64,000 bases of DNA, taken from contig CBDDDZ010000003.1 of the NCBI GenBank assembly GCA_965226795.1, positions 224,001 to 288,000 of the forward strand, written 5' to 3'. The notes beneath the pieces are model-generated. The model ran no database searches and was not told the origin of the DNA. It was given only the letters and a program-made list of their open reading frames with translations. This document shows, one piece after another, positions 4,833 to 52,302 of the stretch (positions are counted from its first letter, which is position 1; every line of letters starts with the position of its first letter). The stretch comes from Candidatus Latescibacterota bacterium. Its GTDB lineage: Bacteria > Latescibacterota > UBA2968 > GCA-2709665. A program made the translations under genes and the position numbers.

Positions 4833-5090
4833 AATTGCTGCTCGTACCCAGAAAGCCACGCAGAGTTCGAACGCGATGCCTTTCGAGAGGACTTCCAGAG
4901 CATAGCGCGAGGTTTCGTCCAGCACCGGGTACCGATGTTTTTCCGTGGCTGGCAGGGCAGCAGGTCATGTGCAACCCGTGAGGCAATTTGCGCTGTGCAT
5001 ATGGCAGGCCCCGCGCCTAGCGGCGACTTTTGGTTCCTTTTGGTCGCGTCAAAAGGAACTCGCCGAAGGCAGGAAATATGGGGGAAGTGG
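4833..5090 (+). repeat. Structured dispersed element, subfamily A copy 1
   Basis: Aligns with 8886-9150 and reverse complement of 35021-35275; core CGTCCAGC-N29-CAGGGC-N16-CCCGTGAGGCAATT; 3' hairpin GTTCCTTTTG/CAAAAGGAAC. Confidence 0.85.
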
Positions 5091-5149
5091 TTTTTTCGCT
5101 TTTGGCTGATTGCTGATAGTTTGTTGTTAAACCAGAAAGAGTTCGTACA

Positions 5150-5821
5150 ATGGACTTTGACGAAATCAAACACCGTCTCTCCCGCCTGGACACCGCGTGC
5201 GTCTGCGATGGATATAAGGCGCTCCATAAACCCGTCAGGGCCGTCGACCCCGCTGTCCGGTCCATCACGCCCGGCCTCCGCCTGATCGGGCGCGCGCATA
5301 CGGTGACCTGCCGCGAGGACTTTCTGACCGTGATCCTGGCCCTGCGCGATGCCTTGCCAGGGGAGGTCCTGGTGATCGATTCTCAGGGGAGCCGGAAGGC
5401 GCTGACCGGGGAACTGTTTCCTACCGAGGCGAGGCGCAAGGGGCTGGCCGGGATCGTCAACGACGGACCGTGCAGGGATACGGCCGCCATTCGTCGGTTG
5501 GGATTTCCCTATTTCGCACGGTCGGTCAACCCGGTTGCCGGAACAACGGATAGGCTCTTCGAGACGCAGATCCCGATTTCATGCGGCGGCGTTCGCGTTC
5601 ATCCGGGCGAGATCGTTTTCGGAGACGACGACGGACTGATCGTAGCGGCTGACGAGGAGATAGCCGAGGTGATACCCATTGCGGAAGGGGTACAGAGGAA
5701 AGAGGCGCGCCTGCTTGCGGAAATGGAAAAAGGCGTGAGTCTGATCGAGATGCTGAACGTCGACGAACACTGCGCAAAAATACGCGCCGGCCAGGAGAGC
5801 AGATTGCGGTTCCTGGTCTGA
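5150..5821 (+). CDS. RraA/HMG-aldolase family protein
   Basis: DTACVCD, GRAHTV, GEVLVID, GxCRD, VHPGEIVFGDDDG. Confidence 0.88.
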   Translation: MDFDEIKHRLSRLDTACVCDGYKALHKPVRAVDPAVRSITPGLRLIGRAHTVTCREDFLTVILALRDALPGEVLVIDSQGSRKALTGELFPTEARRKGLAGIVNDGPCRDTAAIRRLGFPYFARSVNPVAGTTDRLFETQIPISCGGVRVHPGEIVFGDDDGLIVAADEEIAEVIPIAEGVQRKEARLLAEMEKGVSLIEMLNVDEHCAKIRAGQESRLRFLV

Positions 5822-5896
5822 CCGGATAGAGTGACAATGGGAAAAGGGCTTACGACAACTGTCGTAAGCCCTTTCCTTTTCTCAAAGCTGCAATGT

Positions 5897-6430
5897 CTAT
5901 TCGGATGGCAGGATGTCGCTGAACTGGTATTCCTCTACGATTTCGCCGATCGAGGCTTCGAAGTCGTCCTCGCCCCACTGTTCGATGGACAGGGTCTTTC
6001 GTTCGGAATCGTCCAGGTAATCCCAGACGATCAATTCCCGCGGAGGGTCTGCTCCGTCTTTGTAAAATTCGCCGGCGTCGGAGGATTCCGCGAAATAGGT
6101 GACGCCGTTGCAGGTTACCTCTTCAGGCGGGTCTTCGTGTTCGACGACGTGGGACTGCGGGTCGCCGTCAATCCGGGAGATAGGCACCTTGCGTGAAAGG
6201 GTCCAGCAAAGGCCGTCATCCTCCTCCCGTTCCAGGTACACGACGTCATCGGCGCAGGTCAATTCCCATTCGTCCACGCGGTCTCCGTCGTAATCGTAAT
6301 AATTCTGTGCGGTGACCTTCCAGGTCTTGAGGTCATAATCGACCACGTAACCGGGCTTGAGGTCGGACAGTGTGAAGTCGACCACAGGGTCGGATTCGTC
6401 CCTTTTTTTCTTGAAGGGATTCCAGCTCAT
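5897..6430 (-). CDS. DUF4178 domain protein
   Basis: LKPGYVVDYDLKTWKV, EWEL, YLEREEDDGL, LSIEQW pattern; directly downstream of PspA. Confidence 0.72.
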   Translation of the reverse strand: MSWNPFKKKRDESDPVVDFTLSDLKPGYVVDYDLKTWKVTAQNYYDYDGDRVDEWELTCADDVVYLEREEDDGLCWTLSRKVPISRIDGDPQSHVVEHEDPPEEVTCNGVTYFAESSDAGEFYKDGADPPRELIVWDYLDDSERKTLSIEQWGEDDFEASIGEIVEEYQFSDILPSE

Positions 6431-6487
6431 GGGATCACCACCTCCGCACCAGGTACCTGAATTCCCGGCGACGACGAAGTGCCGGAT

Positions 6488-7189
6488 TTACGCTTGAATT
6501 CCCATTTTACTTTTAAGTTCGGCCAGTTTGTCGGAGCCGGGGTTCTTTTCCTCTAACGCGGAGTCGATCTCTTCGTCCACACTCTTGGAAGCGTCGGCCA
6601 CCTCGCCGTAGGCCTGCGACAGGGACTCGTCTTCTTCCACCCGCTCCTTCATGCGTTCGAGCATGGCAAGCGTGCCGTGAGAGTCCACTTTCGCGAGTTG
6701 CTTGTTGATCTTCTTTGTTGCCGCGGCCGTCCGGGCCCGGGCACGCAGCGTCACCAGGTCGTTTTCGTATCCGGCCACGGAGGATTTGAGTTTGTCCACC
6801 TGGGTCTGCAGCTGAGCGGCCATTTCCTCCTGCTGTTTGGCGCTCTGGTTAAGCGTGGCGGCCCGGTTCACGTTTTCCTCTTTACGAGCGAGCGCTTCCC
6901 CGGCAAGGCGGTCGGCTTCGGTATCGTCGATATCGTTATTCTGGGCCTTTTGAAGCAGCGCCATGGCTTTGCGTTCATAGTCTGCCGCGGCCTTCTTGCT
7001 GTCCGATGCCTGTTTACGCAACCGGATGCCCTGCCCTTTGACTTCGGCGAGACTGGTCATGGCGTCACTCAGATCTTTCTTGAGATCCCGGATGCCCTGT
7101 TCCGTCAGGCGAATCGGATCTTCGAATTTGTCGATGGCAGCGTGTACTTCGGCTTGACCCACGCGAAATATGCGTTGAAAGATGCCCAT
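6488..7189 (-). CDS. pspA: PspA/IM30 family protein
   Basis: MGIFQRI...EDPIRLTEQGIRDL, coiled coil, LKSKMG terminus. Confidence 0.9.
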   Translation of the reverse strand: MGIFQRIFRVGQAEVHAAIDKFEDPIRLTEQGIRDLKKDLSDAMTSLAEVKGQGIRLRKQASDSKKAAADYERKAMALLQKAQNNDIDDTEADRLAGEALARKEENVNRAATLNQSAKQQEEMAAQLQTQVDKLKSSVAGYENDLVTLRARARTAAATKKINKQLAKVDSHGTLAMLERMKERVEEDESLSQAYGEVADASKSVDEEIDSALEEKNPGSDKLAELKSKMGIQA

Positions 7190-7280
7190 GGCGTACTCCT
7201 GTCTGATATGAAATTCAGAGGCCGGGGATCGGAAAACGTAACGGATTGCATCTCCGTGGGTTCGATCCCCACTCTCACTA

Positions 7281-7673
7281 TTATTTGCTGTAACTCAAGA
7301 GTTCTTCGGCGTTCTCGCCCAGGGCCAGGCCCAGCGCGCTGACCGTGCCTTCGATTTCCGCCCGGTCCAGCGTATCGAGGCGAAGTGTATCACGGAACAG
7401 AACGGTTCCGGTTTCCTCGTCGAGGGCGAAGGCGCCGTGGATGAGTGTCCGGTTTAATTCCAGCAGACGCTTGTAGAGGTCGCCGGGGTTTTTCGGGATA
7501 GGCATGATGGCCTGTTCCAGGATGAGAATGGGATCTTCACAGTCGACAATGAGCCGGTGGATCCCCCGGTCTTCGTCGGTGACGACCACCAGTTCCTCGC
7601 CGGAATCTTCTTCTTCAATGACCAGCTCGAGGTCCTGAAGATAGGCTTTGACGGTATCAAAGTGCCGCGACAT
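7281..7673 (-). CDS. YbjN/CesT-type chaperone-like protein
   Basis: 130 aa acidic protein, LYKRLLELNRTLIHGAFALDE motif, upstream of pspA. Confidence 0.72.
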   Translation of the reverse strand: MSRHFDTVKAYLQDLELVIEEEDSGEELVVVTDEDRGIHRLIVDCEDPILILEQAIMPIPKNPGDLYKRLLELNRTLIHGAFALDEETGTVLFRDTLRLDTLDRAEIEGTVSALGLALGENAEELLSYSK

Positions 7674-7765
7674 GAAAACTCCTTTGAAATTGCGCTGACA
7701 AGAACTGACCGCTCGTTCGTAAATATATGATTCTCAAGAGTGTATTTTGTTTCAAAAAAAACTTC

Positions 7766-8176
7766 TCAGATATTCAGCATCTTCCCCACGCGGGCGGCGA
7801 GGGACTCGGGCGTTGCGGGCTTTTCCAGGATATGCCCGTGTGAGATACCGAGACCGGCAAGTTCCTCCAGGCGATCCGGACCTGGGATTTCGATGAGAAC
7901 CAGCATTGGAAGACGGGCGAGCATTTTTCGAATGAAACGAATGCAATCGGGCCCGCTGATTTCCGGTAGATCGTATGCGAGAATGACGAGGGCGTACGCC
8001 CTGGGATTTTCGGCGAGGGTTTCCAGGGCGCTGCGACCGTCGGTGACCACGTCCAGTTCGACGTTCCGATGATCGAACAGACCACCGGCGAGGGCCATGG
8101 CTGTAGGTCCATCTTCCGCGAGCAGAATTCTGGGCAAACCAGGGACCGTCTTTAATTCGGGTTGACTCCGGGTCAT
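7766..8176 (-). CDS. Single-domain response regulator receiver, atypical (phospho-Asp absent)
   Basis: RILLAED, DGRSAL, LVILAYDLPEISG, LEKP; start uncertain (8176 or 8248). Confidence 0.7.
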   Translation of the reverse strand: MTRSQPELKTVPGLPRILLAEDGPTAMALAGGLFDHRNVELDVVTDGRSALETLAENPRAYALVILAYDLPEISGPDCIRFIRKMLARLPMLVLIEIPGPDRLEELAGLGISHGHILEKPATPESLAARVGKMLNI

Positions 8177-8280
8177 ACATCCGGGTGACAAATATACGGA
8201 ATTCGCCAGATGGGCCAACCATTTTCTTTTTTTGATAGGCATTGTCATCCGGCCGCACCCGCCGGAGGCATGGTGAAACT

Positions 8281-8558
8281 GGGAAAACAGCGAATGATTG
8301 GGTTGTGCTCGGGGTCTGTGAGGTCATTTTTCTCTCTTCTCCTTGTTTTTTCTTTTTTTACGTCCTTTTTCTTTCTCGCCAAAGAAAAAGGACCAAAAAG
8401 AACGGCGCCGTTCGGCACGGGGCCGGTTTTTACACGAATCTCCTCTCGGGTAAATGCAGGCGCCTGTGCCCTGCGGGCGGGAAAGGCTACCCCAAGCGTC
8501 GGTGCTGTACGGATTAACGCGTAAAAACCCCCCACACCGCCACCGGGCGGCCGTGAGC
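8281..8558 (-). repeat. Structured dispersed element, subfamily B copy 1
   Basis: Reverse complement matches the other B copies: GGGGGTTTTTACGCG...CCGTACAGC-N30-CAGGGC...GATTCGTGTAAAAACC...TTCTTTTTGGTCCTTTTTCTT/AAGAAAAAGGAC. Confidence 0.85.
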
Positions 8559-8654
8559 TATACCGGAAAGGATCGGCGCTCGGTCTTGCGTTTGTACCGC
8601 CTTTAGCCCGATTATTTCATGAATTGTCATGGATGTTGAAATCCGCTTGAATAT

Positions 8655-8759
8655 AGATGGCGTTCTCCGATCAATCAGAGCATATATAAAAAAGCGTTAA
8701 CTTAAAGCCTGGTTCAGCTCCCCCTCTCCTCGCAGGAGAGGGGGCTGGGGGGAGAGGTC
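8655..8759 (+). repeat. 105-bp repeat ending in CCCCTCTCC/GGAGAGGGG palindrome, copy 1
   Basis: Colinear and same length as 18667-18771. Confidence 0.7.
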
Positions 8760-8805
8760 CCCGGGACCGAGGGCTTCCAGCCCTCGTCGCGCCGTTGTTG
8801 CATTT

Positions 8806-8830
8806 GTAGGGGCAACTTTCAAAGTTGCCC
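8806..8830 (+). repeat. GTAG-type REP palindrome
   Basis: GTAG-GGGCAACTTT-C-AAAGTTGCCC. Confidence 0.75.
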
Positions 8831-8885
8831 GCGACGCGGCGCAGATATTGCTTGTTGACATCGCCGGGCCGTACGGGTGACCGAT

Positions 8886-9150
8886 AATTGCTGCTCGCAG
8901 TCAGGAAGCTACGCCGGTTACGACCGCGACGCCATTCCAGAGCACTATCAGAGCAGAGCGCGTGGTTCCGTCCAACTCGGGAGATCGATATCCACTTTCG
9001 CAGGTAGGGCAGAAGTTTCGGTGCATCCCGTGAGGCAATTCGCGCTGTGCATATGGCAGGCGCCGCGCCTAACGGCGACTTTTGGTTCCTTTTGGTCGCT
9101 TCAAAAGGAACCCGCCGGAGGCAGGGAATTTTGGGAGATGTGGATATTGA
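8886..9150 (+). repeat. Structured dispersed element, subfamily A copy 2
   Basis: Core CCGTCCAAC-N28-TAGGGC-N16-CCCGTGAGGCAATTCGCG; same 3' hairpin as A1. Confidence 0.85.
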
Positions 9151-16162: not shown

Positions 16163-17311
16163 TCAAGGCGTGAAAATCAGGATTTTGGCCGTGATATCCC
16201 CGCCATCCGTCGGAATCCCACGGGTCGAATTGTCCGCGGTCTTCAATCCGCCGGCGACCATCACCCGGCCGTCTTCAAGGAGCGTGACCGACGACAGGGT
16301 CCGCCACGGTGCGATGCTGTATCCCGTAGGAGAAAATGCATGTGTGGCCGGATCATACAGTACAATATCGCCGTTAATGGAGCGGATGAGAAACACATTT
16401 CCGGACGGCAGCAGCAGGGCGGCGCTCGGATCGATTGTAGAAACGCCTGCCGGCGAAAACGAGTTTGTTTCAGGGTCGTACATCTCGGCGGTATGTACGA
16501 AAGGACCTGTACCGGCTTTGCCGCCTACGATCAGGACCCTGCCGTCCTGTAGAAGCACCGCCTTATGGTTTACGCGGTCGAACTGCAAGTCGCCTGCTTC
16601 TGAAAAAGCTTTGGACGAGGGATCGTAAATCAGATTCCGTCCGACCAACCCGTCCTCGATTCCGCCGCGTATTCCTCCAACGATCAGCACCCGGCCGTCC
16701 TTCAACAAAGTCGCCGTATGGAGTCTACGTCGATCGTCCATCGCGAAGATTGATGTGAATGCACGTACATCCGTGTCAAAGACACCCGTGTGTTCTACGC
16801 TAGTCACAAAGACCGCTCCGCTGTGAAGCAGGGTTGTGGTCTGGATAGTTGTATTGGAGGGTACGTCCGCCAGGGCGTCGAATATCCCTGAATCAGGATT
16901 GAACATTTCAATAGTTATATGACCATACCTGGGCATGATCAGGACGCGACCGTCGGGAAGCGATATTCCGTGGTCCGAATGACGACTGACGGTCATGTTT
17001 CCCGTTGGCGAAGAGGTCCCGGTCACCGGATCGAATATCTCTGCGCTGATATGACGCTTCGTCTTGGGAATAACGGCATTCGCGGGAGGCGGTTCCGCGA
17101 ACACGGGAAGTAATTCCGCATAGCCGCCGCCGATCAGGACCTTGCCATTCTGCATTAACGTCGCGACATGCTCATACCGCGGTTGGGTCAGACTCCCGAC
17201 CTCATGAAGACCCCTTTCGAGGGCTGGCGGCTCCGACGTCGTCACCGAATCTCCTCCACAAGCCCAGAAGCTCCATAGGACAAACAGCGCAAACAAGATT
17301 CTGGCAGTCAT
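16163..17311 (-). CDS. Kelch-repeat beta-propeller lipoprotein, paralog 1
   Basis: FWAC lipobox; repeated HTATLLxDGRVLIVGG...YDP. Confidence 0.88.
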   Translation of the reverse strand: MTARILFALFVLWSFWACGGDSVTTSEPPALERGLHEVGSLTQPRYEHVATLMQNGKVLIGGGYAELLPVFAEPPPANAVIPKTKRHISAEIFDPVTGTSSPTGNMTVSRHSDHGISLPDGRVLIMPRYGHITIEMFNPDSGIFDALADVPSNTTIQTTTLLHSGAVFVTSVEHTGVFDTDVRAFTSIFAMDDRRRLHTATLLKDGRVLIVGGIRGGIEDGLVGRNLIYDPSSKAFSEAGDLQFDRVNHKAVLLQDGRVLIVGGKAGTGPFVHTAEMYDPETNSFSPAGVSTIDPSAALLLPSGNVFLIRSINGDIVLYDPATHAFSPTGYSIAPWRTLSSVTLLEDGRVMVAGGLKTADNSTRGIPTDGGDITAKILIFTP

Positions 17312-17371
17312 CTCTTTACCTCGCGTCAAGGTTCTGTAAGTGCGACATCTACGCGATAGGGCTGCCAAGGC

Positions 17372-17396
17372 GGGCAGACAGGAATGTCTGCCCCAC
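17372..17396 (-). repeat. REP-like palindrome
   Basis: GGGCAGACA-GGAA-TGTCTGCCC-CAC. Confidence 0.6.
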
Positions 17397-17474
17397 CTTC
17401 ACACTGGCTTCCTCAGAGTTAACGTGTTGGCAAAGATTCGACGGATGCGTTTCGCGAATGATGATCCGCCGCCC

Positions 17475-17580
17475 TGTCATTCTGAGCGCAGTCGAAAATC
17501 TCCTGCCGAAGCGTGGTCATTGCCTGTATTGCTTGGTTGTTTACGCTGCCTGTACTGAGCCTGTTGAAACGAGCTTGTCG
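17475..17580. repeat. TGTCATTCTGAG / CTGAGCCTGTCGAA palindromic repeat family (D), degenerate copy
   Basis: Shares TGTCATTCTGAGCGCAGTCGAA and GGTCATTGCCTG with 28411-28606. Confidence 0.65.
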
Positions 17581-17588
17581 ACGTGCCT

Positions 17589-18278
17589 TCACTCGGCGGC
17601 CGAATTTCGGCAATCTATTTCCGCGCGGGTCGCGCGGGATTCGGTCCTTCCGTTCCCTTCGCTGATGTCTATCGGCGTGTGAATTCTGAATGCTGGAAAG
17701 CCGTTCTTCCCTCTCGCACGGGTCAGCGGTTCGCTCCGACCTACCGGATCCATCGGTCTGCCATTGCCCGCCCATGTCGCCTCACCTGAATCCGGCGAGC
17801 CGGTTCGGCGCCCCCGGAACCTTTCAAGGTTATCCATAAATAGATCAAGCATATTGAACAGGAATTCTTCGTAAGACTGTTTCGCGCCTTCGCTGGCGGC
17901 CTTTTCGTTCTGCACGCTGTCAGCCACTTCGTCGAGACTGTTCCTGACCTGACGCGCCAGGCGTCCAATGGCGTCTGCAGCAGTCGACTCCTCTGCGAAG
18001 TCAATGGATACTTGCATATTGAAAGCCCGTGCGTAAATCGCCAGGTCCTCCAGTTTGAGCCGGTCGTTCCTGCTGTTCTCGATTCTCGAGATTTTGTTCT
18101 GCGTGCAACCGGCCCGTTGCGCCAGTTCCGCCTGAGTCAAATCCCGAGAACAACGCAACGTACAAAGAGCCCGTGAAACATTGTAATCCGCAAGATGACC
18201 CTCAAGTTCATCGTGGAAGGTTCTGTCCGGTACGGTGTCACGCACCATTTCAGACACCGATGCATAACGCTTTTCCAT
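17589..18278 (-). CDS. XRE-family HTH transcriptional regulator
   Basis: LTQAELAQRAGCTQNKISRIEN. Confidence 0.8.
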   Translation of the reverse strand: MEKRYASVSEMVRDTVPDRTFHDELEGHLADYNVSRALCTLRCSRDLTQAELAQRAGCTQNKISRIENSRNDRLKLEDLAIYARAFNMQVSIDFAEESTAADAIGRLARQVRNSLDEVADSVQNEKAASEGAKQSYEEFLFNMLDLFMDNLERFRGRRTGSPDSGEATWAGNGRPMDPVGRSEPLTRARGKNGFPAFRIHTPIDISEGNGRTESRATRAEIDCRNSAAE

Positions 18279-18666
18279 TACGACGCTCCCTTTGAAGACT
18301 ATCGACAAACGCTCGGCAGATACCGAGATCCTTTTTCTGAATGTTCTGGAAACTGAAAACCACGAGGTGAGGTTATTCGTACCACGATCTTTTAGCCTGA
18401 TTAATTAATGAATTGTCACGGATTGCAGTTTCCGAAAGCAGAAACAGCTTCCGATTGGATTGAGAAAGTGAATCCCAATGTGCAATACATTCTGGATTCG
18501 GATAGTTTGAAACAGACGAGACCTACCCCCTAACCCCCTTCCTGAGAGGAAGGGGGAACTGTGATCCGCTGATGAATGTCTGGATTGGATGAATGCGTTT
18601 CGATTGATGAAAAAACCCGGGCGAAATATCGTGATTAGTCGGCGAGTTGTGCTTGGTAAAGTGACG

Positions 18667-18771
18667 AGATGGCGTTCTCCAATCAATCGGAGCTCGTATA
18701 AAACAGTGTTTACGCAACCCTTCGTTCGACTCCCCCTCTCCTCGCAGGAGAGGGGGCCGGGGGGAGAGGTC
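18667..18771 (+). repeat. 105-bp repeat ending in CCCCTCTCC/GGAGAGGGG palindrome, copy 2
   Basis: Colinear with 8655-8759; related inverted hairpin at 18522-18558. Confidence 0.7.
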
Positions 18772-19036
18772 TTTTTTACCGATAATGCAGGTCAGTCTGT
18801 GCACAGGAAGAAAGCGTGACCCCTGCGCCTGGCACCAGCGCGTATCGCTTTTCTCCCATGCGTGCGACCGGATTTTATCTAAAATCGGGATATTTTTTGC
18901 TGGAAGAGTTGGAAATTATGCAAATATAAGATAATTTCTCGATAACGCAATCGGTCCCTGGGGGTCAACATTGACGAACCACGCTATGTGGTTGAACGTT
19001 TGCCCGTGGATTGCAACTCGACAGAAAAGACCTTGA

Positions 19037-19064
19037 TATAATATGACTTTTAAGTCATATTATA
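19037..19064. promoter_or_regulatory. Perfect 13-bp inverted repeat, probable toxin-antitoxin operator
   Basis: TATAATATGACTT-TT-AAGTCATATTATA, 5 bp upstream of ATG 19070. Confidence 0.7.
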
Positions 19065-19069
19065 GAGCC

Positions 19070-19147
19070 ATGGACTGGGAAGTCAGATTCCATCCGGCGT
19101 TCGACCCGGAATTCGATGCCTTGCCCAACGACGTACAGGAGGTCAAC
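19070..19147 (+). pseudogene. N-terminal remnant of RelE/HigB (Gp49-like) toxin
   Basis: MDWEVRFHPAFDPEFDALPNDVQ runs directly into the antitoxin RBS. Confidence 0.65.
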
Positions 19148-19486
19148 ATGACGACACTCACTGAGAAAATTGACAGGCTGCCCGAGGCACGCCGGAAGAA
19201 AGTGGAGGAGCGAGCCAGGGCGCTGATTGCCGAAGAGATGTCGCTGCAGGATCTGCGAAAGGCTCGAAAGTGGACGCAGGTACGCGTAGCGAAGGAACTC
19301 GGGATCAACCAGGAGAACGTATCCCGTATCGAAAAGCGCAGCGATCTGCTGCTATCCACGCTCAGTGGCTACGTGGAAGCGATGGGCGGAACATTGCGCC
19401 TGGTGGTGGAATTCCCGGACCGACCGCCCATCGCGCTGACTGGCATCTCGGCCCTGGACAAGGAGGACTTTCAGACAAAGCCTTAA
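19148..19486 (+). CDS. XRE-family antitoxin (HigA-like)
   Basis: AGGAGG RBS; SLQDLRKARKWTQVRVAKELGINQENVSRIEKRSDLLLSTL...YVEAMGG. Confidence 0.85.
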   Translation: MTTLTEKIDRLPEARRKKVEERARALIAEEMSLQDLRKARKWTQVRVAKELGINQENVSRIEKRSDLLLSTLSGYVEAMGGTLRLVVEFPDRPPIALTGISALDKEDFQTKP

Positions 19487-19522
19487 AGTTCCCGCGAAAG
19501 GAGTGGACCACTGCCGTCCTCC

Positions 19523-21334
19523 CTACAGCGTAGAAACCGTCGCAGACGGGGGACCCTCATTCGGAGGTCGCCGGTAGTCCACGGCGGTGATCCGATAGAA
19601 AAAAGATCCGGATGCCGTACCCCGATCCACGTACCGCGTGGTGTCCAGAGGGGCCTCGTTCAGCGGCGCGAACGGCCCTTCCGGCCCGGTGGCCCGGTAC
19701 ACAATGTACCCTTTAAGCCCTGTAAGCGCCGTGCCGTCGGCATCGGTTTCCGGACGGCGCCACGAAATCCGCGCGTCCGGTCCACTGCAAACGACTTCGA
19801 GGTGCAGCGGTGCGCCAGGCGCCCACCTGTCGTACGCCTGCATGGATATGCCCAGCATCGCGGCCGTCACGGCAATATGTGCCGGTCCGTCGTGAACTGA
19901 AACCTCCTTTTCGAAGTACGCGGCCATCGATTCCCAGATCTGGTAGTCGTACCCGGCCAGATAGAGAAAACCCCACCCCCTCCAGCCCCGTTCCGCGTCG
20001 TGCTTACCTGGAGGGCCGCCTATGTAGTACCTGAACTCCGGCACCTCCAGGCTCCCGTTCCAGACATGGTGGACAAACGTGTTGGCCATCCTCTCGAGGT
20101 CCTTCGGGGCGAAACCCAGTCCGCTTTTCACGCCCTGCAACGCCACTTGAATATCGATAAAGGCATGCCCGACATCCTCCATCAGTTCGGGCCAGTGGCT
20201 TTCGGGACCGTATTTCCAGGTGTAAGCGTCCGCTTCCGGATCGTACAGCAGTTGATCGTGGAAGAACCGCATCATCTGCTCGCTCTGTTCAGCGTAAAAC
20301 GGTACAAACCCTTCTTTGTACGGCTTGTAGTACGGCGACCTGGTCAAGCGACGGAGCGTTACCAGCGCATCCGTAAACGACAGAAACATATTCAGCGGTT
20401 GGTGCTTCCACCCGGACCATTCGTACACGTGGTATCCTGCGTCCTCGCCATAGCGGCTGTTGTCCTCTACCGTCCACCCCGGGCCCGGCGCCCAGTTGGC
20501 GTACCACTTGGCAATCACGTCCTCTTCCACAACGCGCAGGAAATCATCCGCTTTGGCCCTGTAGGCTGCGTGTAAGGACGGATCCTCCCAGACCAGCTCC
20601 ACAAATGCCAGGATCGGACTGACAATCAACCCATCGTCGGAAAACCATTCGGTGTATTCGGGACTGTACTGGCGGTACCGGTTCTGCCCCCAGCCCCTGT
20701 ATCCGTCCACGTATCGGTGATCGTAGACTTCATAGGGCGGCACGTCAGTGCGGGCTATCAGAATGCGATCGATATGACTTACCAGTTTGTCCAGCCAGAC
20801 GGTTTCTTTGAATGTCCCGTAGAGGTTCAGGTACATCCTCTGCACGTAGGCCGAAGGACCCCAGGCGAACGACCCTCCATCGCGGCCGTCCAGATAATTG
20901 TCCCCGAATGTTTGATCCCACGTCAAAAAAGCCGCGTACCAGTCGGTACTCGTGGGTCCTTCGAACGTTACGGCCGGACGTTTCTTTGCAACGGCGGCGA
21001 TATCCGGCCCGGACGGTGGAGTCTCCGGCTCGCCCGCTTCAGACGCTGACTTATGCGGCTCCCCTTGCAACCTCGGCCCGGGAGAGGCGATCTCGTGCCG
21101 CTTGACGGTAACCCTACCTGACGGAAACGCCACGGCCGCCCACCCCGGCAGGGTCTTCCCAACGGCACATTTCGGCGTCGACGCGAGTACGCCAGGTTTA
21201 TCGACTGCATTGACGTAGGCACCTTGAACGGCGCCCGCGAAAGGGACGTCCATCCACACGAACACAACGGGCAAAAACGCGCAGAGACAGAGACGTAGCG
21301 GAAAGACAATCGGCGTATGTCCGATGTTTACCAT
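19523..21334 (-). CDS. Secreted protein with aromatic-rich helical core and C-terminal fibronectin type III-like domain
   Basis: Signal-like N-terminus; C-terminal ISW...GYIVYRA...YVD...YRITAVD...NEG. Confidence 0.7.
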   Translation of the reverse strand: MVNIGHTPIVFPLRLCLCAFLPVVFVWMDVPFAGAVQGAYVNAVDKPGVLASTPKCAVGKTLPGWAAVAFPSGRVTVKRHEIASPGPRLQGEPHKSASEAGEPETPPSGPDIAAVAKKRPAVTFEGPTSTDWYAAFLTWDQTFGDNYLDGRDGGSFAWGPSAYVQRMYLNLYGTFKETVWLDKLVSHIDRILIARTDVPPYEVYDHRYVDGYRGWGQNRYRQYSPEYTEWFSDDGLIVSPILAFVELVWEDPSLHAAYRAKADDFLRVVEEDVIAKWYANWAPGPGWTVEDNSRYGEDAGYHVYEWSGWKHQPLNMFLSFTDALVTLRRLTRSPYYKPYKEGFVPFYAEQSEQMMRFFHDQLLYDPEADAYTWKYGPESHWPELMEDVGHAFIDIQVALQGVKSGLGFAPKDLERMANTFVHHVWNGSLEVPEFRYYIGGPPGKHDAERGWRGWGFLYLAGYDYQIWESMAAYFEKEVSVHDGPAHIAVTAAMLGISMQAYDRWAPGAPLHLEVVCSGPDARISWRRPETDADGTALTGLKGYIVYRATGPEGPFAPLNEAPLDTTRYVDRGTASGSFFYRITAVDYRRPPNEGPPSATVSTL

Positions 21335-21471
21335 CGGACGATACCTCGCGCAATGTACATCGGTCGGTCGTCCTTCATAAGATGACCCGCCCGGATGGAT
21401 AAAGCCTGTACATCGTGAATAATGACACTGCCCGCTTAACGTCAGTTTCGCGACGACTTCCCCGACCTCGA

Positions 21472-22554
21472 CTACGGTCTGTATATCAGGATATGATCCG
21501 TTGCCTCGAGGTCCTTCAATCCACCAACAATCAGCACACGGCCGTCGCGAAGGAGCGTTGTCGTATATAACGCGCGGTTTTCATCTATGCTGTCTCCGGT
21601 AGGACCAAACGCGCCGGTGGCCGGATCGTAAAGAACGACCTCGCCGCTATGTCCGATGATAAACACGCTGCCCGATGGTAGCAGAGTAGCCGCGCGAATC
21701 GGTTCGATTCCGGGGTCCCCTTCGGATGAAAACGTCCCCGTCGCGGGGTCATATCGCTCGGCGGCCGTTACCGACGCTTCAGACCCCTCATCGCCTGTGC
21801 TCCCGCCAATGATCAACACGCTGCCGTCCGGAAGAAGAATCGCTCGGTGTCCTCGCCGTTCGTATTTAAGGTCGCCTGTGGGGGTAAGCGTATTGGACGA
21901 CGGATCGTAGATTTCGGATTCTTTGACCATGCCCTCTGCATTGCCGCCGCCGACAATGAGTACCCGCCCATCCCGCAACAGAGTCGCCGTATGTCCTGCG
22001 CGAACAACAACCGTCTCCGGAAGTGACGTGAAGTTCCCCGTGTTCGGGTCGAAGATGGCGACGCCCAATGAAGAATAGGTGAGGATCTTCCCATTGGGCA
22101 GTAACGTCATCGACGAGATTATCGCAAATGCGGGATCAAAGGGTGCTGCCGTGAACCGCCCGGTATTCGGATTGAAAAATTCCAGCGGGGCCTGTTGAGC
22201 GCCTGCGAATAGCACCCAGCCGTCCGGCAGCAGTATTCCCATGTCGCGTGTTCGAGCAGAGGACATGTTGCCCCCTCTGCTCGAGGTCCCCGTTGCCGGA
22301 TCGAATATTTCCGTGCTGGCACGAAACATGGACGAAGGCGCATAACCCGGGCTCTCCGTTGCGGCGCCGCCCGTGATCAAAACCTTGCCGTCCTGCAACA
22401 ATACCGACGCGTGCCAGAATCGCCTTTCCGTCATTTTTCCGGCGACTTCAAAACCCTTCAGATCGCTCGAGACCTCCGGGGACGTCGGCACGGTTCCGCC
22501 GCAACCCATAAGGCTCGAGACGATTAACAACGCGGATACCATTCTAACGGACAT
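21472..22554 (-). CDS. Kelch-repeat lipoprotein, paralog 2
   Basis: LMGC lipobox; GHTATLLRDGRVLIVGG repeats. Confidence 0.88.
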   Translation of the reverse strand: MSVRMVSALLIVSSLMGCGGTVPTSPEVSSDLKGFEVAGKMTERRFWHASVLLQDGKVLITGGAATESPGYAPSSMFRASTEIFDPATGTSSRGGNMSSARTRDMGILLPDGWVLFAGAQQAPLEFFNPNTGRFTAAPFDPAFAIISSMTLLPNGKILTYSSLGVAIFDPNTGNFTSLPETVVVRAGHTATLLRDGRVLIVGGGNAEGMVKESEIYDPSSNTLTPTGDLKYERRGHRAILLPDGSVLIIGGSTGDEGSEASVTAAERYDPATGTFSSEGDPGIEPIRAATLLPSGSVFIIGHSGEVVLYDPATGAFGPTGDSIDENRALYTTTLLRDGRVLIVGGLKDLEATDHILIYRP

Positions 22555-22589
22555 TTGGTGTCCTTCCCCGGCGCAGGGCGAATTTGCTG

Positions 22590-24563: not shown

Positions 24564-24723
24564 ATCTCCTCGTCCGGCAAAGAGTCGTTGGATGTTCAGA
24601 CAGTTAGCGGGATTTCCCCTCAGACACCAGCCGGATCGCCGCCATCTCTTGTCGCGGGGTCATCCGCTTATTGGCGAGTCTCCGCGCCCGGGATGGCATC
24701 GGGAAGACGTTCAGGGCAAGACC

Positions 24724-28359: not shown

Positions 28360-28410
28360 TTCGGGGCCAACGAATGGCGGATGCATTACCCTGATTGTTA
28401 TTAGATAACA

Positions 28411-29841: not shown

Positions 29842-29930
29842 GTTATATCCTCCGGCTTATTCCGATACGTGTAATCTATCGATCTTCTTTCAACAACCGC
29901 TTGTGGCGCTTCCCCCTGGTGCCTCCCTGT

Positions 29931-33219: not shown

Positions 33220-33579
33220 TGGTGGAGGCGGCGGGAATCGAACCCGCGTCCGGAAGCAAATCAACGACAGCCTCTACGTGTGTAGTTTACCCTTTGAATC
33301 TCACGCGCAGGCGCCCCGGTAAACGGGGTTGCCAGCGCGCCAGCTCGATTAAATCTCGCTCTCGCACCCTCAAGCGGAGGTCCGGGAGCCAGCCTGCATA
33401 AGTCGGCGCCCCGCGCGGGCCCTGAAGGCGAGGCCCGTCGGAACGGGCTGCGTTTTAGTTACGCAGCCATTGCGTACGTATTGTCCGCAATTATATGGGT
33501 TTCCCACAGTTTAACGAGGTTATGGGACCTCGACACGCAGCCATCGCCTCTCCACCCCCGTCGAATCCAGGTCGCCCCC
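33220..33579 (-). ncRNA. ssrA: tmRNA; tag peptide (A)ADNTYAMAA at 33488-33459
   Basis: 5' GGGGGCGACCTGGATTCGAC; 3' GGTTCGATTCCCGCCGCCTCCACCA; G3:U alanine acceptor pair; 360 nt. Confidence 0.97.
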
Positions 33580-34937: not shown

Positions 34938-35020
34938 GTCCGGCGCGCGGGGTGAAACAGCGTTTAACCTTCAGGGTACAGCAGTCAGCCAAAAAATCAA
35001 TAGGGAAAAACCAAATTCAA

Positions 35021-35275
35021 CATCTCCCCAAATTCCCTGCCTCCGGCGGGTTCCTTTTGAAGCGACCAAAAGGAACCAAAAGTCGCCGCTAGGCGCGGGG
35101 CCGTTCATATACATTGCGCGAATTACGTCACGGGACCCACCGGATCCGCTGCCCTGCCAACCCCGGTGGATACCGTAATTTGGTGCAGGACGGAACAACG
35201 CGCCCTGTTCTGGTAGTGCTCCGGATAGCCATCGCGTTAGACAAGCGCGTGGCTACCTGGTTGCGAGCAGTAATT
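35021..35275 (-). repeat. Structured dispersed element, subfamily A copy 3
   Basis: Reverse complement core CCGTCCTGC-N28-CAGGGC-N16-CCCGTGACGTAATTCGCG; 3' part nearly identical to A2. Confidence 0.85.
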
Positions 35276-35430: not shown

Positions 35431-35695
35431 CCTCTCACCCGACCGGTTGTGGCGTGGGGGGTTTTTCCGTGTCATTCCGTACATCTCCGTAGGCCGGGAG
35501 TTCCGAGAGGGCTTGTAGGCCACCCAATCCCATTTTGCGCCCATGAGACGATTCACGGAAAAACCGGCCCCGCGCCGAGCGGCCTGCCTGCGCCGAGCCG
35601 TGCTCGGCAGGCAGGCGCGGTTCTTTTTGGTCCTTTTTCTTACGCGAATAAGAAAAAGGACGAAGAAGAAGAAAAGTTGGTTTGAGAAGTATAGC
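35431..35695 (+). repeat. Structured dispersed element, subfamily B copy 2
   Basis: GGTTTTTCCGTG/CACGGAAAAACC stem; CCGTACATC-N30-TAGGCC; terminal hairpin; nested 33-bp palindrome. Confidence 0.85.
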
Positions 35696-37587: not shown

Positions 37588-37656
37588 ACGAAGGTCCGGT
37601 CGTCATTACATCAGCCGGGGGAGCGATGTGGTCACGAAACCCTGCGCTTAGCCGCT

Positions 37657-37711
37657 CGCTGAGCTTGCGGTCCCTGAGCCTGTCGAAGGGTCGGCGAAGT
37701 GTAACGAAGGA
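37657..37711. repeat. Family D fragment
   Basis: CTGAGCTTGCGGTCCCTGAGCCTGTCGAAGGGTCG is the reverse complement of about 28567-28601. Confidence 0.7.
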
Positions 37712-38292: not shown

Positions 38293-38480
38293 CGAATAAT
38301 AACCTTAATTCGCCTTAAACCTGATGCAAGCATGTCGGGGGCATGATGCCCGTCTTCCCTGCATAAGTCGCGCCGAGCGGCGCGGTTCACAAAAAGCAAC
38401 CAGCGAACAGTTGTCAGCAGTCAGCCAAGAGCAAGAACAAACACCGAAAATCAATCCTGACACGTGAGACAGCGCAAAGC

Positions 38481-38668
38481 CGACGGAGAGTGGAAGGGGC
38501 TTTTCCGCGCTGATCCGTCCAGCCACGCGGCCCTACTTGGCCAGATTAGTCAGCAGGGCGCCATTCGTCGTATTTCCCCTGGGGCGATTCGCGGAAAAGC
38601 AGCCCCGCGGCGTCTGAGCGGCGCCCTTCTTTTTCGCCCTTTTTCTTTGGCGATGCAAGAAAAAGGGC
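38481..38668 (+). repeat. Structured dispersed element, subfamily B copy 3
   Basis: GCTTTTCCGCG/CGCGGAAAAGC stem; CCGTCCAGC-N30-CAGGGC; GCCCTTTTTCTT/AAGAAAAAGGGC. Confidence 0.82.
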
Positions 38669-38947
38669 AAGGGAATAAGGGACGTTAGCGGGAGGGGAGA
38701 TTCTATGTGACCCCTTTTTCCTGCCGGCCGGCCGGAACGCAGATCCAAAAAGCCATAAGACGTATGGCGGTCGAAGTGAGAGGATCAATCCGCAACCCTC
38801 CGGTTTCGCGCTCGCTTTGGTAACCCAAGTCTCTATTCGTACAACGACACCCCGGATGCCGGGGTGACATCCAACAAGGTAACATACACCTCTTGCGTCT
38901 TTCCTCTAGCCTCTCACGGCTTTTAGCGATCATTGCGATCGCTTTTT

Positions 38948-41470: not shown

Positions 41471-41494
41471 GCCTTGTGGCCCTTCAAGATCTAT

Positions 41495-41770
41495 CTCTCA
41501 GCCACCCGGTGGTGGCGTTGGGGGCTTTTCCGCGCCAATCCGTTCAGCAACACGGTTTACGGATCACCTGCGATCTACGCAGGCCTCCAACCCTTGTAGG
41601 CGCCCCTGAGGCGATTTTCGGAAAAGCAGCCCCGCGGCGTTTGAGCGGCGCCGTTCTTTTTGGCCCTTTTTCTTTGGCGAGAAAGAAAAAGGGCGTAAAA
41701 ATAAAAAAAATAACAATTTAAGAGAAATATATGGACGAGGTTATAGCAAACCCATCATTCACGTTTCCCC
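41495..41770 (+). repeat. Structured dispersed element, subfamily B copy 4
   Basis: CCGTTCAGC-N31-CAGGCC; terminal hairpin; A-rich tail ending AAACCCATCATTC shared with B1 and B6. Confidence 0.85.
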
Positions 41771-46491: not shown

Positions 46492-46840
46492 CCCTCACGC
46501 GACCGGTTGTGGAGTGTGGGGTTTGTTCGCGGCAAAAATCGCGCCGCTCACCATCAGCCTCGAACGCCAAAACCAGGCGTCCCCTGTTGTCCCGTATAGA
46601 CCCCGGAACAACAGGTCACCCGCTTCGCGGGCGGAGGCGGATTCTCCACTCTTTAACGTCCAGCACCGAAGTGCCGTGGATCCCGATGCGTACGTAGGGC
46701 ACAACCGCCAGTATACGCCACTGACGAGATTCGTGGAAAAACCGGCTCCGCGCCGAGCGGTCTGCCTGCGCCGGCCCGTGCTCGGCAGGCAGGCGCGGTT
46801 CTTTTTGGTCCTTTTCCTTGCGCGAACAAGAAAAAGGACG
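46492..46840 (+). repeat. Structured dispersed element, subfamily B copy 5 (with roughly 130-nt 5' insertion)
   Basis: CGTCCAGC-N30-TAGGGC; nested palindrome as in B2; terminal hairpin. Confidence 0.82.
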
Positions 46841-46884
46841 GAGAAATTGAGAATTGATTGAAGTGATGCATTTCCCTCCCCTTG

Positions 46885-47844: not shown

Positions 47845-48007
47845 CCGAAGCGTGGTCATTGCCTGTGCTGGCTTGTCGAAGCAAGCTTGTCGAAATGTGT
47901 ACGCTGAGCCTGTCGAAGCGCCCGTGTTTCGGCGCCCTTCGCCGACCCATCGACAGGCTCAGGGCAGGGCTTAGGGGCCACAGGCTCACGATGCGGGCTC
48001 AGGGTGC
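47845..48007. repeat. Family D nested palindromic element
   Basis: TGTCGAAGCAAGCTTGTCGAAATGTGTACGCTGAGCCTGTCGAAGCGCCCG is identical to the 28479-28529 block. Confidence 0.75.
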
Positions 48008-50336: not shown

Positions 50337-51575
50337 TCACGAAATCTTCAGCGCGTCGTCTATCTCCGCCTGATAGGCGTCTATCTTACCGGTCTCTACC
50401 TCCGACATCCGTACCGCCCGACCCGCTACGGCGGACTCGAAAATCCCATACACCGCGGCCACGTCCTTCATCCCTTCCATGCCGTCCACCTCCACTTCCT
50501 TTCCCTCCGCAATGGCTTCGCCCAACTCGTAGTACTCCATGGCAAGAAGCTTCAAATCGACCTCGCGGTCCGCCGACGTGACTCCGGTAGGGAAAAAATA
50601 GGCCGTCAGCGCATCCGGCTCGAAGCCCTCCGCGCCTGCCAGCATTTCCTCCTGTTCCTGGAATTCGCCACGCCCGCGACGCATACGCACCCGTCCGCCG
50701 CGTGTGCCAAAACCCTCAACGCACCCCTCCGTGCCGAGAATCAACTGGGTACCGCATCCCCCGTATCCGCCCAAACCAACCACCCAGCTCACCGTGGCGC
50801 CATTGGCCATGCGATACATCGCCACGGACGAATCCTCGGCGTCGGCCGGAACGGCATGCACCATGTCTTCGAATTGTTTCCGGTAGAATTCATAGGGCAT
50901 CCACGTCGTGTCGGCCTTTCGCCGCACCGGCTCCACCAGCCGCACATCCCCGTACACTTCGTGGATATCCCCCATTTGATAGCGGATCAGGTCGGTATAG
51001 TGTACCCCCATATCCACCAGCGGCCCACCGCGATTCTTGAGGTGGCGCCAGGGGGTAATGAAAATCCGGTCCCCCTCGCTTACCTGATGGAACAGACCCA
51101 TGTACGGGACGCCTATCGCTCCGCTCGCCACCATATGGTTCGCCAGTCGCGCCGAAGGATCCCGCCGGTAATTCTCCGCCACGGACAACACGCGTCGATT
51201 CCGTTCCGCCGCCTGAATCATCATCAGACAGGCACGAACGGTAATTGCCATTGGCTTTTCCACCATCACATGCAGCCCGAGATCCAGCGCCCGACAGGCC
51301 ACCTCGTGATGGACCGAAGGATCGGTCACCACGTCCACGGCATCCAGTTCCGGCATCGCGGCGGCCATTGCCTCCAAATCGGCAAAAACCGCCGGCTCCA
51401 CCCCCAGAAGTTTTCTGGCCTCAGCGGCCGCCATCCCGGCATTGTCCGGATTGATGTCGCACAACGCCCGCAAATCGATCCTGTTAAACGGCGTCTGCGC
51501 GAGCGTCCGCAGACCATAGAGGTGCCGCGTTCCCATGCCGCCGCATCCCACCAGTCCCAGGTTGATCCGCTCCAT
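50337..51575 (-). CDS. Gfo/Idh/MocA oxidoreductase
   Basis: GCGGMG, MVEKP, AENYRR, DMGVH. Confidence 0.9.
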   Translation of the reverse strand: MERINLGLVGCGGMGTRHLYGLRTLAQTPFNRIDLRALCDINPDNAGMAAAEARKLLGVEPAVFADLEAMAAAMPELDAVDVVTDPSVHHEVACRALDLGLHVMVEKPMAITVRACLMMIQAAERNRRVLSVAENYRRDPSARLANHMVASGAIGVPYMGLFHQVSEGDRIFITPWRHLKNRGGPLVDMGVHYTDLIRYQMGDIHEVYGDVRLVEPVRRKADTTWMPYEFYRKQFEDMVHAVPADAEDSSVAMYRMANGATVSWVVGLGGYGGCGTQLILGTEGCVEGFGTRGGRVRMRRGRGEFQEQEEMLAGAEGFEPDALTAYFFPTGVTSADREVDLKLLAMEYYELGEAIAEGKEVEVDGMEGMKDVAAVYGIFESAVAGRAVRMSEVETGKIDAYQAEIDDALKIS

Positions 51576-51785
51576 ATCGGTCTCTTTTCTCAAAACTCCC
51601 GCCGCACCTGTCTTAACGCCCCTTGACACAAGAGCGATGTTCGCTATCTTCGTTCCGCCGGGTGGCGGGCTGAAAACAGCGAACAGCCGTCAAAAAAACA
51701 GCTATCAGCTGTCAGTTTACAGCATTCAGCTAAAACCGTTTGGCGTTTCGGCCTGGTGATATCAATTCGCGTATGTCCGGATTTT

Positions 51786-51813
51786 GTAGGGGCGACCGGC
51801 CGGTCGCCCCTAC
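51786..51813. repeat. Perfect 28-bp GTAG REP palindrome
   Basis: GTAGGGGCGACCGGCCGGTCGCCCCTAC; second inverted REP at 51909-51932. Confidence 0.8.
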
Positions 51814-52028
51814 GTATACCGTGCGTCCGACGAGGAACAGCGGTCAACTGACGCCGGTCATCCATACGGCCCAGCGTTGTCAATTGCCGTTGTCTACTCC
51901 AAGATGTGGACAACCACAAGGGTTGCCCCTACAAATGCCAAGGCGACGCGAACTGGTTTGTGGCTTCATACGTCCTCCCGCCCGCCCCGCTGTGGGGATG
52001 GGGCTTTTTCGCTCTATCCGGCGATTTG

Positions 52029-52302
52029 CCTCTCGCGTGTCCGGTGGTGGTGCGGGGGGTTTTTCCGCGTTGATCCGTCCAACCGTGTCGCCTCGTGTAT
52101 GCTCAGGCGGTCTCAGGGCAATGTCTCACGATTTCTCCACTAAGGAGATTCGCGGAAAAACCGGCCCCGTGCCGAACGGCGCCGTTCTTTTTGGTCCTTT
52201 TTCTTGGGCGTACAAGAAAAAGGACGTAAATAATAGAAAAATAAACAATTTACGAGAAATACATGGTCGAAGTCATAGCAAAACCCATCGTTCGCCTTTA
52301 TC
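52029..52302 (+). repeat. Structured dispersed element, subfamily B copy 6
   Basis: GGTTTTTCCGCG/CGCGGAAAAACC; CCGTCCAAC-N30-CAGGGC; terminal hairpin and A-rich tail. Confidence 0.85.

Follow-up and report, generated by a model that had tools for sequence, protein, structure and literature searches.

The REPIN/RAYT system involves intergenic, non-autonomous elements in which inverted conserved arms stand at a fixed distance from one another and enclose a less conserved spacer of constrained length; compensatory changes and species-specific populations have also been described for these elements (PMC3116915). The Neisserial NIMEs, which combine dRS3 and RS elements, place inverted repeats around variable sequence families within dynamic intergenic mosaics, differ at syntenic sites, and have been proposed to serve as recombination substrates with incoming DNA; their RS elements, of 19 to 214 bp, occur in long arrays (PMC1797815). 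The BoxC/PIT/TMECO repeats of E. coli are intergenic triplex-type motifs whose two subtypes occur as inverted pairs without strand bias, and origin-ward clustering in K-12, unstable surroundings and the lack of a known enzyme are reported in the same account that defines prokaryotic MITEs as small, multicopy, non-coding and stem-loop forming (PMC4666352). IS110 bridge/seek RNAs and TIGR guide RNAs carry two variable segments between conserved motifs inside a stem. In TIGR systems, a Nop-domain gene is accompanied by an array whose 36-nt units have spacers of 8-12 nt (PMC12045711). The repeat family that is the subject of this work, comprising types A and B, resembles REPINs, NIMEs (the RS lengths and long arrays of the latter apart), the BoxC group and MITEs in the traits given for each, and the two RNA classes in its pair of variable segments.

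Nine copies lie in the window, that is, the whole stretch of 64,000 nucleotides of Latescibacterota DNA that was analyzed, and belong to a genome-wide, dispersed, non-coding repeat family. This family is probably a non-autonomous, REPIN/NIME-like selfish module, whose copies multiply and are exchanged through recombination with one another and across related species.

The window copies and their family

All nine copies that the original prediction had placed in the window were found at those sites and on those strands; they are real, but the genome as a whole (G000) holds approximately 105 full copies, 29 of type A and 76 of type B, none of which overlaps a called gene. A strict core pattern matched seven of the nine window copies, as opposed to none in 100 shuffles, the two that it missed (A1 and B5) being those that deviate in the first anchor.

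Copy A1 (4833..5091, plus strand) displays the A-type leader, a stem arm at ~4898-4909, anchors 1, 2 and 3 at 4914, 4953 and 4986, with segment 1 between the first two and segment 2 between the last two, and then a GC hairpin and a triplex-type tail at ~5027-5058. Copy B1 (8354..8557, minus strand), with anchor 1 at 8503-8513, segment 1 at 8474-8502, segment 2 at 8440-8466 and anchor 3 at 8433-8439, is back-to-back with copy A2 (8886..9144, plus strand), in which anchor 1 occupies 8967-8977, segment 1 8978-9004, segment 2 9012-9037 and the tail 9079-9110. The mosaic spacer that separates the two (8558..8885) contains other repeat modules, including the hairpin CCCCTCTCC and a GTAG-type palindrome at 8806. 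Copy A3 (35017..35275, minus strand; anchor 1 at 35184-35194, tail at 35051-35082) is likewise back-to-back with copy B2 (35432..35665, plus strand; anchor 1 at 35476-35486, segment 1 at 35487-35515, segment 2 at 35523-35550, tail at 35621-35661), which holds a nested 33-nt hairpin insert. The remaining copies lie on the plus strand. B3 (38481..38670) has a short leader, anchor 1 at 38514-38524 and a tail at 38627-38668, while B4 (41495..41701; anchor 1 at 41539-41549, tail from 41654) carries a segment 1 that exceeds the mode by one base. The B copy that had been placed at 46492 is in fact composite: positions 46492..46628 correspond to module C, a related repeat on the plus strand with a core word at 46540-46556, whose leader is common with B and which stands ahead of several B copies, and the core of B5 itself (46629..46844) starts only at ~46629, with a degenerate 5' stem arm, anchor 1 at 46655-46665 and a tail at 46799-46839. 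Finally, B6 (52030..52233) has stem arms at ~52059-52069 and ~52151-52161, anchor 1 at 52074-52084, segment 1 at 52085-52113, segment 2 at 52121-52147 and a tail at 52185-52225; at this locus, the related genome G013 carries the same loop and G008 a different one. Because these coordinates give anchor 1 a length of 11 nt and assign the Y of YAGG to anchor 2, the segments come out shorter than the spacers as originally measured; under the original measure, five B copies indeed have a first spacer of 30 nt, and it is 31 nt long in B4 and 28-29 nt in A.

Copies are mostly single or in back-to-back pairs, 23 of the 29 A copies being joined with a B copy in this manner, and the longest runs consist of three tandem copies. 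The family is present in 14 of 14 congeners and patchy across the order, and a search of relatives' genomes did not find it in most sister-family members; in each of G010, G015, G070, G072 and G073, one loop type has expanded in a genome-specific fashion. Comparison of the window with Rfam 15 at gathering score matched only the tmRNA and no A or B copy, and below threshold yielded 19 matches on the A3/B2 pair, the best scoring 28 bits where 70 were required. Four scans of viral contigs, as well as blastn against phages and plasmids, gave no A/B match. A metagenome pattern search was too loose, only nine of 120 stretches scoring with the family profiles, and four lone genome matches outside the lineage were dismissed as chance, having no score in these profiles. 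No published description of the family was found in the literature searched.

A covarying stem, a loop of fixed length and a triplex-type tail

The core of the element is an 11-bp stem that closes a loop of 78-82 nt with three anchors. Ninety-eight percent of 1089 stem cells are paired, and both sides have changed in three of the 11 pairs (77 cells), a level reached by none of 500 shuffles, while slid controls gave 0-3 such cells. Within the stem, G.T outnumbers A.C (27 versus 8), an excess that favors, weakly given that the copies are related, folding of the given strand. Within the loop, the distance from anchor 1 to anchor 2 is 41 nt in 69 of 76 B copies, variants that deviate by one base in length being frequent. 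Loop sequence is far freer: copies differ from one another at ~60% of sites, with a divergence per site of 0.56-0.60, versus 0.10-0.24 in stem and tail. Between close copies, loop indels per substitution amount to 0.003-0.014, 6-25-fold rarer than the 0.079 of alignable intergenic DNA. Selection on fold and spacing, as originally proposed, is thus upheld for the closing stem and for loop length, and the claimed stem covariation also extends to the terminal hairpin, where one position varies between T-A, C-G and G-C.

The two variable segments, of ~29 nt and 20-24 nt, belong to loops that retain a weak consensus throughout and sort into subfamilies. No self-folding of the loop was detected on either strand (MFE z about 0), nor any Watson-Crick covariation within it; the suggestion that the variable segments are plain hairpins is not supported, and as a group they self-pair no better than chance. 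An inner helix between anchor 1 and anchor 2 was rejected as well, being 82% paired but without covariation, with 118 of 500 shuffles scoring as high. Loop conservation shows no periodicity of 3 or of 10-11.5 nt (p 0.6-0.7 for the helical period). Substitutions follow an ordinary spectrum (transition/transversion ~1.1, the same as in other intergenic DNA). In diversity-generating retroelements, variation is restricted to the adenines of a template; mutagenesis of this type is ruled out by the presence of all six substitution classes in 51 close pairs.

The 3' tail displays intrastrand-triplex symmetry, is A/T-rich and follows the class IV order. Third strand, pyrimidine arm and purine arm all agree in 189 of 237 tails, which fall into four types; a further 28 agree in two strands, the search pattern having ended early in the purine arm, and 20 deviate. 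The tail is predicted to fold into a pyrimidine-motif triplex.

Turnover, chromosomal position and the search for an enzyme

When the 61 copies of G008 and G013 were compared with the corresponding G000 loci, 42 had no matching copy there, nine faced a copy with another loop and 10 one with a near-identical loop. In G008 (31 copies), 21 had no counterpart of the same type and orientation at the G000 locus, six had the same loop and four another; in G013 (30 copies), these numbers were 21, four and five. This presence/absence and the replacement of loops at orthologous sites single out the non-autonomous mobile element as the best fit among the three options initially put forward. In 15 comparisons of filled and short sites, cassettes of 230-941 nt stand against 14-92 nt in G000, whole intergenic spacers being exchanged for mosaic repeat cassettes, and most of 12 comparisons showed tracts of near-identity, 100-600 nt long and centered on the element. 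In the 10 orthologous loops that were kept, 17 of 566 sites (3%) differ, as compared with 20.7% of four-fold sites, and some loops are 98-100% identical at orthologous loci between species with a gene identity of 84-96%. We read this near-identity as recent transfer; it is equally what selection on loop sequence would produce. Association between loop columns declines with distance from 0.18 to 0.13 (0.105 when shuffled), and among 11 G015 copies four-gamete conflicts occur in 8/20, 29/49 and 40/67 comparisons with rising distance; repeated mutation is another possible source of such conflicts. Neighboring copies of G000 resemble one another no more than distant copies do (28.8 versus 28.6 differences), and inspection by eye of the 15 filled/short sites and of the sequences flanking 76 B and 29 A copies revealed neither sharp ends nor a target duplication; both observations weigh against the selfish-module reading. 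Some B copies of G000 sit inside a separate MITE-like element.

Copies accumulate towards the origin: 24 of 42 in G008, 32 of 50 in G013 and 10 of 11 in G010 lie in the quarter of the origin-terminus distance nearest to dnaA, while within 1 Mb of the G000 terminus there are 10 of 105 copies versus 38.8 expected. When seven other repeat motifs were examined, three of them (MITE ends, GTAG palindromes and one heptamer) were likewise depleted near the terminus; these motifs share cassettes and are not independent. Strand showed no clear bias with respect to GC skew (62/105).

A nuclease, transposase or RT gene recurring beside the copies was not found among 613 flanking ORFs, in which the only recurrent neighbors belonged to common metabolic families. 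No copy lies within 1.5 kb of seven Y1 loci from relatives, whose RAYT genes carry other repeats; the three Y1 matches of G000 belong to a restriction island and are separated from any full copy by over 10 kb, and RAYT fragments beside tandem B copies were seen at one G013 locus only. G000 has six RT matches, three of them belonging to a multicopy, group II intron-like element. In this genome, which is 95.9% complete, neither IS110 (PF02371, PF01548) nor TnpB was found, and the Nop domain (PF01798) was absent, although remote Tas proteins might escape this profile. The presence of an autonomous element in the A-B interval was rejected, the single long gap (3.5 kb) carrying, on inspection, a gene for a secreted-type protein and no transposase. 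G000 also encodes multicopy proteins that resemble ordinary transposases.

Candidate explanations and described systems

The idea that the copies derive from a gene or from IS ends, as fragments decaying in place by neutral drift, is highly improbable. Although the ordinary substitution spectrum agrees with it, and one of the six reading frames is slightly short of stops (40 versus 52 expected, range 38-66), stops otherwise occur as expected and no frame is open in most copies, so that the copies are not decayed coding sequence; the common one-base length variant, the recent expansions and the turnover speak against it as well, and the contrast in divergence between stem or tail and loop is not what in-place decay would give. 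This reading is largely refuted. A role in chromosome organization, with a host protein binding the element around the replication origin, is very unlikely: the crowding near dnaA and scarcity at the terminus would suit it, but the other depleted motifs, the lack of helical periodicity and of clear strand bias, and the sister-family genomes without detected copies do not. It is unlikely, too, that copies are kept for a local transcription task, the GC hairpin with its T-tract and the A/T hairpin serving to terminate transcription in one or both directions or to protect mRNA ends. Terminator-like matches do fall on B3, B4, B6 and A3 (37 in the region versus 20 in shuffles), B6 folds much better than its shuffles (z -4.1), and pyrimidine-motif triplexes can form in RNA, but the E. 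coli triplex repeats are reported to have displayed no terminator activity (PMC4666352). Moreover, the folding of A2 is at shuffle level (z -0.16), an 81-nt loop of fixed length would be superfluous for a terminator, presence differs at two thirds of loci between close species, and the spacers concerned are 59 tandem, 28 divergent and 18 convergent. The location of seven of nine copies upstream of a co-oriented gene is true of the window, but does not amount to enrichment genome-wide, where 62 of 105 are co-oriented with the 3' gene against ~58% expected, a figure that shows no orientation bias and lends no support to the proposed cis-leader. RNA-library contigs cover B5, B6 and the A3/B2 spacer, with no end pile-ups listed, these contigs being without strand, ends or level and open to cross-mapping of paralogues.

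Could each copy instead be a small RNA, whose two unpaired segments of fixed length guide a protein encoded elsewhere, as a dispersed repertoire or as copies that home to the sites specified by their guides? Two unstructured segments between conserved anchors within a covarying stem, the near-identical orthologous loops, and the existence in Pseudomonas putida of stand-alone mobile copies of IS110 RNA (PMC12288879) could be taken in its favor, yet this possibility is quite unlikely. Guide-like behavior of the variable segments, as once suggested, stayed at control level throughout: the longest exact genome matches of 75 loops equaled those of column-resampled controls, matches to own flanks at 0.3, 1.5 and 5 kb had mean ranks of 0.49-0.54 and were thus not in excess, for 95 copies no part of the 250 upstream or 200 downstream nucleotides was identical or complementary at a fixed offset, and 192 CRISPR spacer entries shared no 13-mer with the loops. 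The absence of IS110, TnpB and Nop-domain genes from the G000 matches adds to this, and a weak consensus with subfamilies is what descent with mutation predicts. A homing, guide-bearing module of a new kind, of RNA or ssDNA, in which a covarying stem would present two programmable segments of fixed length, a triple helix would shield the 3' end and a trans-acting protein would drive locus-specific gene conversion between co-resident species, would account for near-identical orthologous loops amid diverged flanks; we hold it to be quite unlikely also. A multicopy ncRNA as such stays a candidate option.

Selfish spread and reshuffling, rather than a set of guide RNAs, is the most likely explanation, with the failure to find a linked mobilizing enzyme counting against it, and a folded single strand is likely to be what a candidate protein recognizes. 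The conserved stem arms and tail would offer near-perfect homology in genomes ~10% apart, such that cross-overs there could exchange the loop in register; loop sequence would be free, and loop length and anchor spacing would be kept because they provide a geometry required by the protein or by an intermediate of recombination. Some copies also travel as cargo in an ordinary MITE. If this selfish-module reading is true, A/B is a lineage-specific repeat of unusual design (a fixed-length unpaired loop, internal anchors and a triplex-type tail) in a little-studied phylum, and a tractable case in which to ask how intergenic repeats that lack an enzyme, BoxC and NIMEs among them, are moved, how they pass between species and how they accumulate near the origin. 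With hundreds of natural variants at hand, the features recognized by a protein should be readily readable. A new functional system would be at hand only with a transcript and a partner protein.

Among the described systems, target-site duplication is a criterion for MITEs, and A and B, as opposed to these, are without terminal inverted repeats, sharp ends or a visible target duplication. In contrast to the TIGR and IS110 RNAs, the A/B segments of ~29 and 20-24 nt, rather than 8-12 nt, are dispersed, with no box C/D repeats or array, and with no target match in the genome, present flanks or CRISPR spacers compared. The arms of A/B are not REP palindromes, unlike those of REPINs, and their spacer, which does not self-pair, includes three asymmetric anchors and is followed by the triplex-type tail, with no RAYT tied to the family. 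NIMEs differ in that the A/B loop of 78-82 nt has internal anchors, that copies are mostly single or paired and have arms of another sequence than the dRS3 20-mer, which they do not carry, and that the host is a member of the Latescibacterota. Lastly, an identification of the tail with BoxC was rejected, the E. coli motif being a G/C-rich class II triplex as described in PMC4666352, whereas the A/B tail is A/T-rich and of class IV.

Anatomy of the A/B family

The A and B copies belong to one real dispersed repeat family. All nine window copies of the original prediction lie where it had placed them, and profiles built from eight of these detect, in the 5.4-Mb source genome (G000), 73 A hits, 29 of them full copies, and 171 B hits, 76 of them full, including one chimera. 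None of the 105 full copies overlaps a gene called by a hexamer-based caller built for this analysis. A adjoins B back-to-back in 23 of the 29 A copies, across a gap of 33-333 nt, and flanks and spacers are composed as mosaics of other small repeats. Three tandem A copies, their loops all different, follow a divergent B at G000:C3:633406-634415.

Each B copy opens with a G-rich leader, followed by an 11-bp stem that encloses a loop of 81-82 nt with three anchors, then a GC hairpin (in which a 33-nt nested hairpin is optional) and finally an A/T-rich tail; A differs in leader and stem sequence, has the same loop anchors, and carries a related tail. The first anchor spacing in the B loop is 41 nt in 69 of 76 copies, 42 in 5 and 39-40 in 2, and the second is 33-34 nt in 74/76. 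The two loop segments differ by 0.60 and 0.56 per site among 53 of the genome's own B copies; the anchors, at 0.19-0.31, and the 3' stem arm, at 0.10, vary less. Indels per substitution amount to 0.003-0.014 between close copies versus 0.079 in alignable intergenic DNA; the pattern used here itself restricts loop length, and a profile-based anchor-spacing set free of that restriction agrees.

The covariation originally claimed is borne out for the closing stem, which is 98% paired in 99 distinct cores from relatives and has 77 cells with both sides changed, at three of 11 pairs, a level reached by 0/500 shuffles (slid controls, 0-3 cells); these counts are inflated by relatedness of the copies, and the same pairs nonetheless top the mutual-information list. 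Within the loop, searches yielded no Watson-Crick covariation, no folding better than shuffles on either strand, no periodicity of 3 or 10.5 nt, and no open reading frame, the last arguing against decayed protein-coding fragments.

The tail runs from a pyrimidine tract through a linker, pyrimidine arm and loop to a purine arm, the strand order of the class IV intrastrand triplex (PMC4666352). In 189 of 237 tails, spanning four tail types, all three strands match one another both in run length and in whether a C is present; 28 others agree in two strands, where the search pattern ended early, and 20 deviate. The tail is predicted to form a class IV triplex, from a pattern that few independent changes underlie.

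Turnover and distribution among relatives

Copies in two relatives, G008 and G013, were compared with the orthologous G000 loci. The comparison covered those copies of each genome whose retrieved locus had 1.3 kb or more of flank, which is part of the full set. For 31 G008 copies, 21 G000 loci have no copy of the same type and orientation, six have the same loop and four another loop; for 30 G013 copies the corresponding numbers are 21, four and five, where the no-copy class takes in loci without alignable flanks and some replacement calls are based on one flank. At the locus of window copy B6 (52030..52233, +), G013 has the same loop (80/81) and G008 another (37/55). A group II intron-like RT element (L017:3937-5888), with related copies in G000, lies ~310 nt upstream of the G008 orthologue.

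In fifteen filled/short-site comparisons, cassettes of 230-941 nt replace spacers of 14-92 nt, with no target duplication visible by eye, and in several filled sites the B copy sits within a separate MITE-like element. This element has inverted ends, which give 53 matches in G000 (example L123:2677-3542); B copies and other modules ride in it as cargo, and in one case it adjoins a CTAG site.

Ten kept loops differ at 17/566 sites, as opposed to 20.7% of four-fold sites and 14.5% of intergenic DNA; the 85% cut-off that defines "kept" biases this figure, and the distribution shows two clear modes. Identity is highest over a stretch of 100-600 nt surrounding the core, in many cases including filler DNA, and this makes recent transfer the more probable explanation and selection on the loop alone the less probable one. 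Association between loop columns falls off with distance, four-gamete conflicts are frequent among copies of the carrier G015, and the substitution spectrum is ordinary.

B6 matches occur in 14/14 congeners, 16/18 family members and 0/12 sister-family genomes. Across 168 phylum genomes, the core pattern is found in 16/21 in the family, 4/31 in the sister family and 1/115 beyond. Among the four sister-family genomes, G073, whose copies are a minimal form of stem, loop, hairpin and tail, has 16 hits and the others have 1-2 each; with a stem pattern, G070, G072 and G076 are also recognised as carriers. Carrier relatives bear the title Latescibacterota, or in some cases Gemmatimonadota or uncultured; sequencing runs containing the window's stretch include sponge metagenomes, and out of 120 metagenome stretches 9 are genuine family members. 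Sequence searches detected no member in viral contigs, phages or plasmids.

Mobility and alternative roles

The family is probably a non-autonomous selfish module. Its conserved stem arms and tail would serve as homology anchors and also form a single-stranded recognition structure; in-register exchanges would swap loops among loci and among species, loop length being enforced by a protein or a recombination intermediate, and carriage in the MITE accounts for part of the movement. The original prediction had proposed looking for a nuclease, transposase or RT recurring beside copies, and among 613 flanking ORFs, judged by sequence clusters and not profiles, no mobility family recurs. G000 has three Y1 matches, all within a restriction island, its RTs are of group II intron type, and IS110, TnpB and Nop gave no match there. 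RAYT genes in relatives are accompanied by other repeats, and at one locus (G013 L011:3300-5200) three tandem B copies are interleaved with duplicated RAYT gene fragments. A restriction-modification island (L020, G000:C2:163395-166976 and 169129-172749) holds two DNA-methylase-like ORFs of ~1200 aa, each with an in-frame RAYT (Y1) domain insertion; G008 has a similar 1220-aa frame.

Action as a terminator or mRNA-end element appears unlikely: the 3' gene is co-oriented for 62/105 copies, against ~58% expected under random placement (arithmetic on spacer classes, for spacers over 250 nt). RNA-library contigs cover some copies, such contigs carrying no strand, ends or level. A guide RNA is slightly less probable still: set against the guide-like segments suggested at the outset, the similarity of loops to other parts of the genome, to their own flanks and to CRISPR spacers stays at control level. 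With the origin taken as dnaA, copies concentrate near it in G008, G013 (both positioned by a strict pattern) and the carrier G010 (KS p 6e-5, 3e-10 and 9e-6; 0.002-0.005 after cluster merging), and the G000 terminus holds 10 copies versus 38.8 expected, an avoidance also seen in 3/7 other repeat motifs; a protein site of the origin region is nevertheless improbable. That the copies are neutral relics is very improbable.

The window contains several other repeats. Module C, related to the B leader (window 46492-46628, +; 11 G000 loci by strict word), often lies directly upstream of B. GTAG-type REP-like palindromes (8806, 41816, 51786-51813, 51922; 54 G000 loci) are depleted near the terminus, GCTGA-type heptamer runs (4777-4832, 38400-38440, 51682-51713; 33 loci) flank many cassettes, and a palindromic repeat of CTTCGACA type (28476-28606, 37654-37708, 47871-47964; 93 loci) has no clear origin bias. 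Window 8655-8759 recurs at 18667-18771. DUF350, spermine-synthase-like, DUF4178, PspA/IM30 and CesT-type genes (847-8327) lie near A1 and B1; three Kelch-repeat proteins, two TPR proteins and two HTH genes form a cluster (16163-32414, -), a tmRNA gene has the tag ADNTYAMAA (33220-33579, -), and the remaining window genes encode ordinary metabolic and repeat proteins. Elsewhere, a CRISPR array of ~76 repeats lies at G000:C5:3031455-3038417 along with a second, short one, and near-identical pairs of several consecutive genes at C3:41845-60117 and C2:7658-17616 suggest segmental duplication or assembly overlap.

Comparison with described systems

The A/B repeat is apparently unpublished: no description was found, and subscription journals or supplementary repeat and RNA-motif catalogues could hold one. 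By name, not by sequence, it is absent from the families given in the accessible part of the 40-genome survey PMC2267715. Its tail is similar in type to the BoxC class (PMC4666352), yet departs from it on a defining BoxC test; the family as a whole works like neisserial NIMEs (PMC1797815) and like REPINs (PMC3116915), yet differs from each on a defining test of that system.
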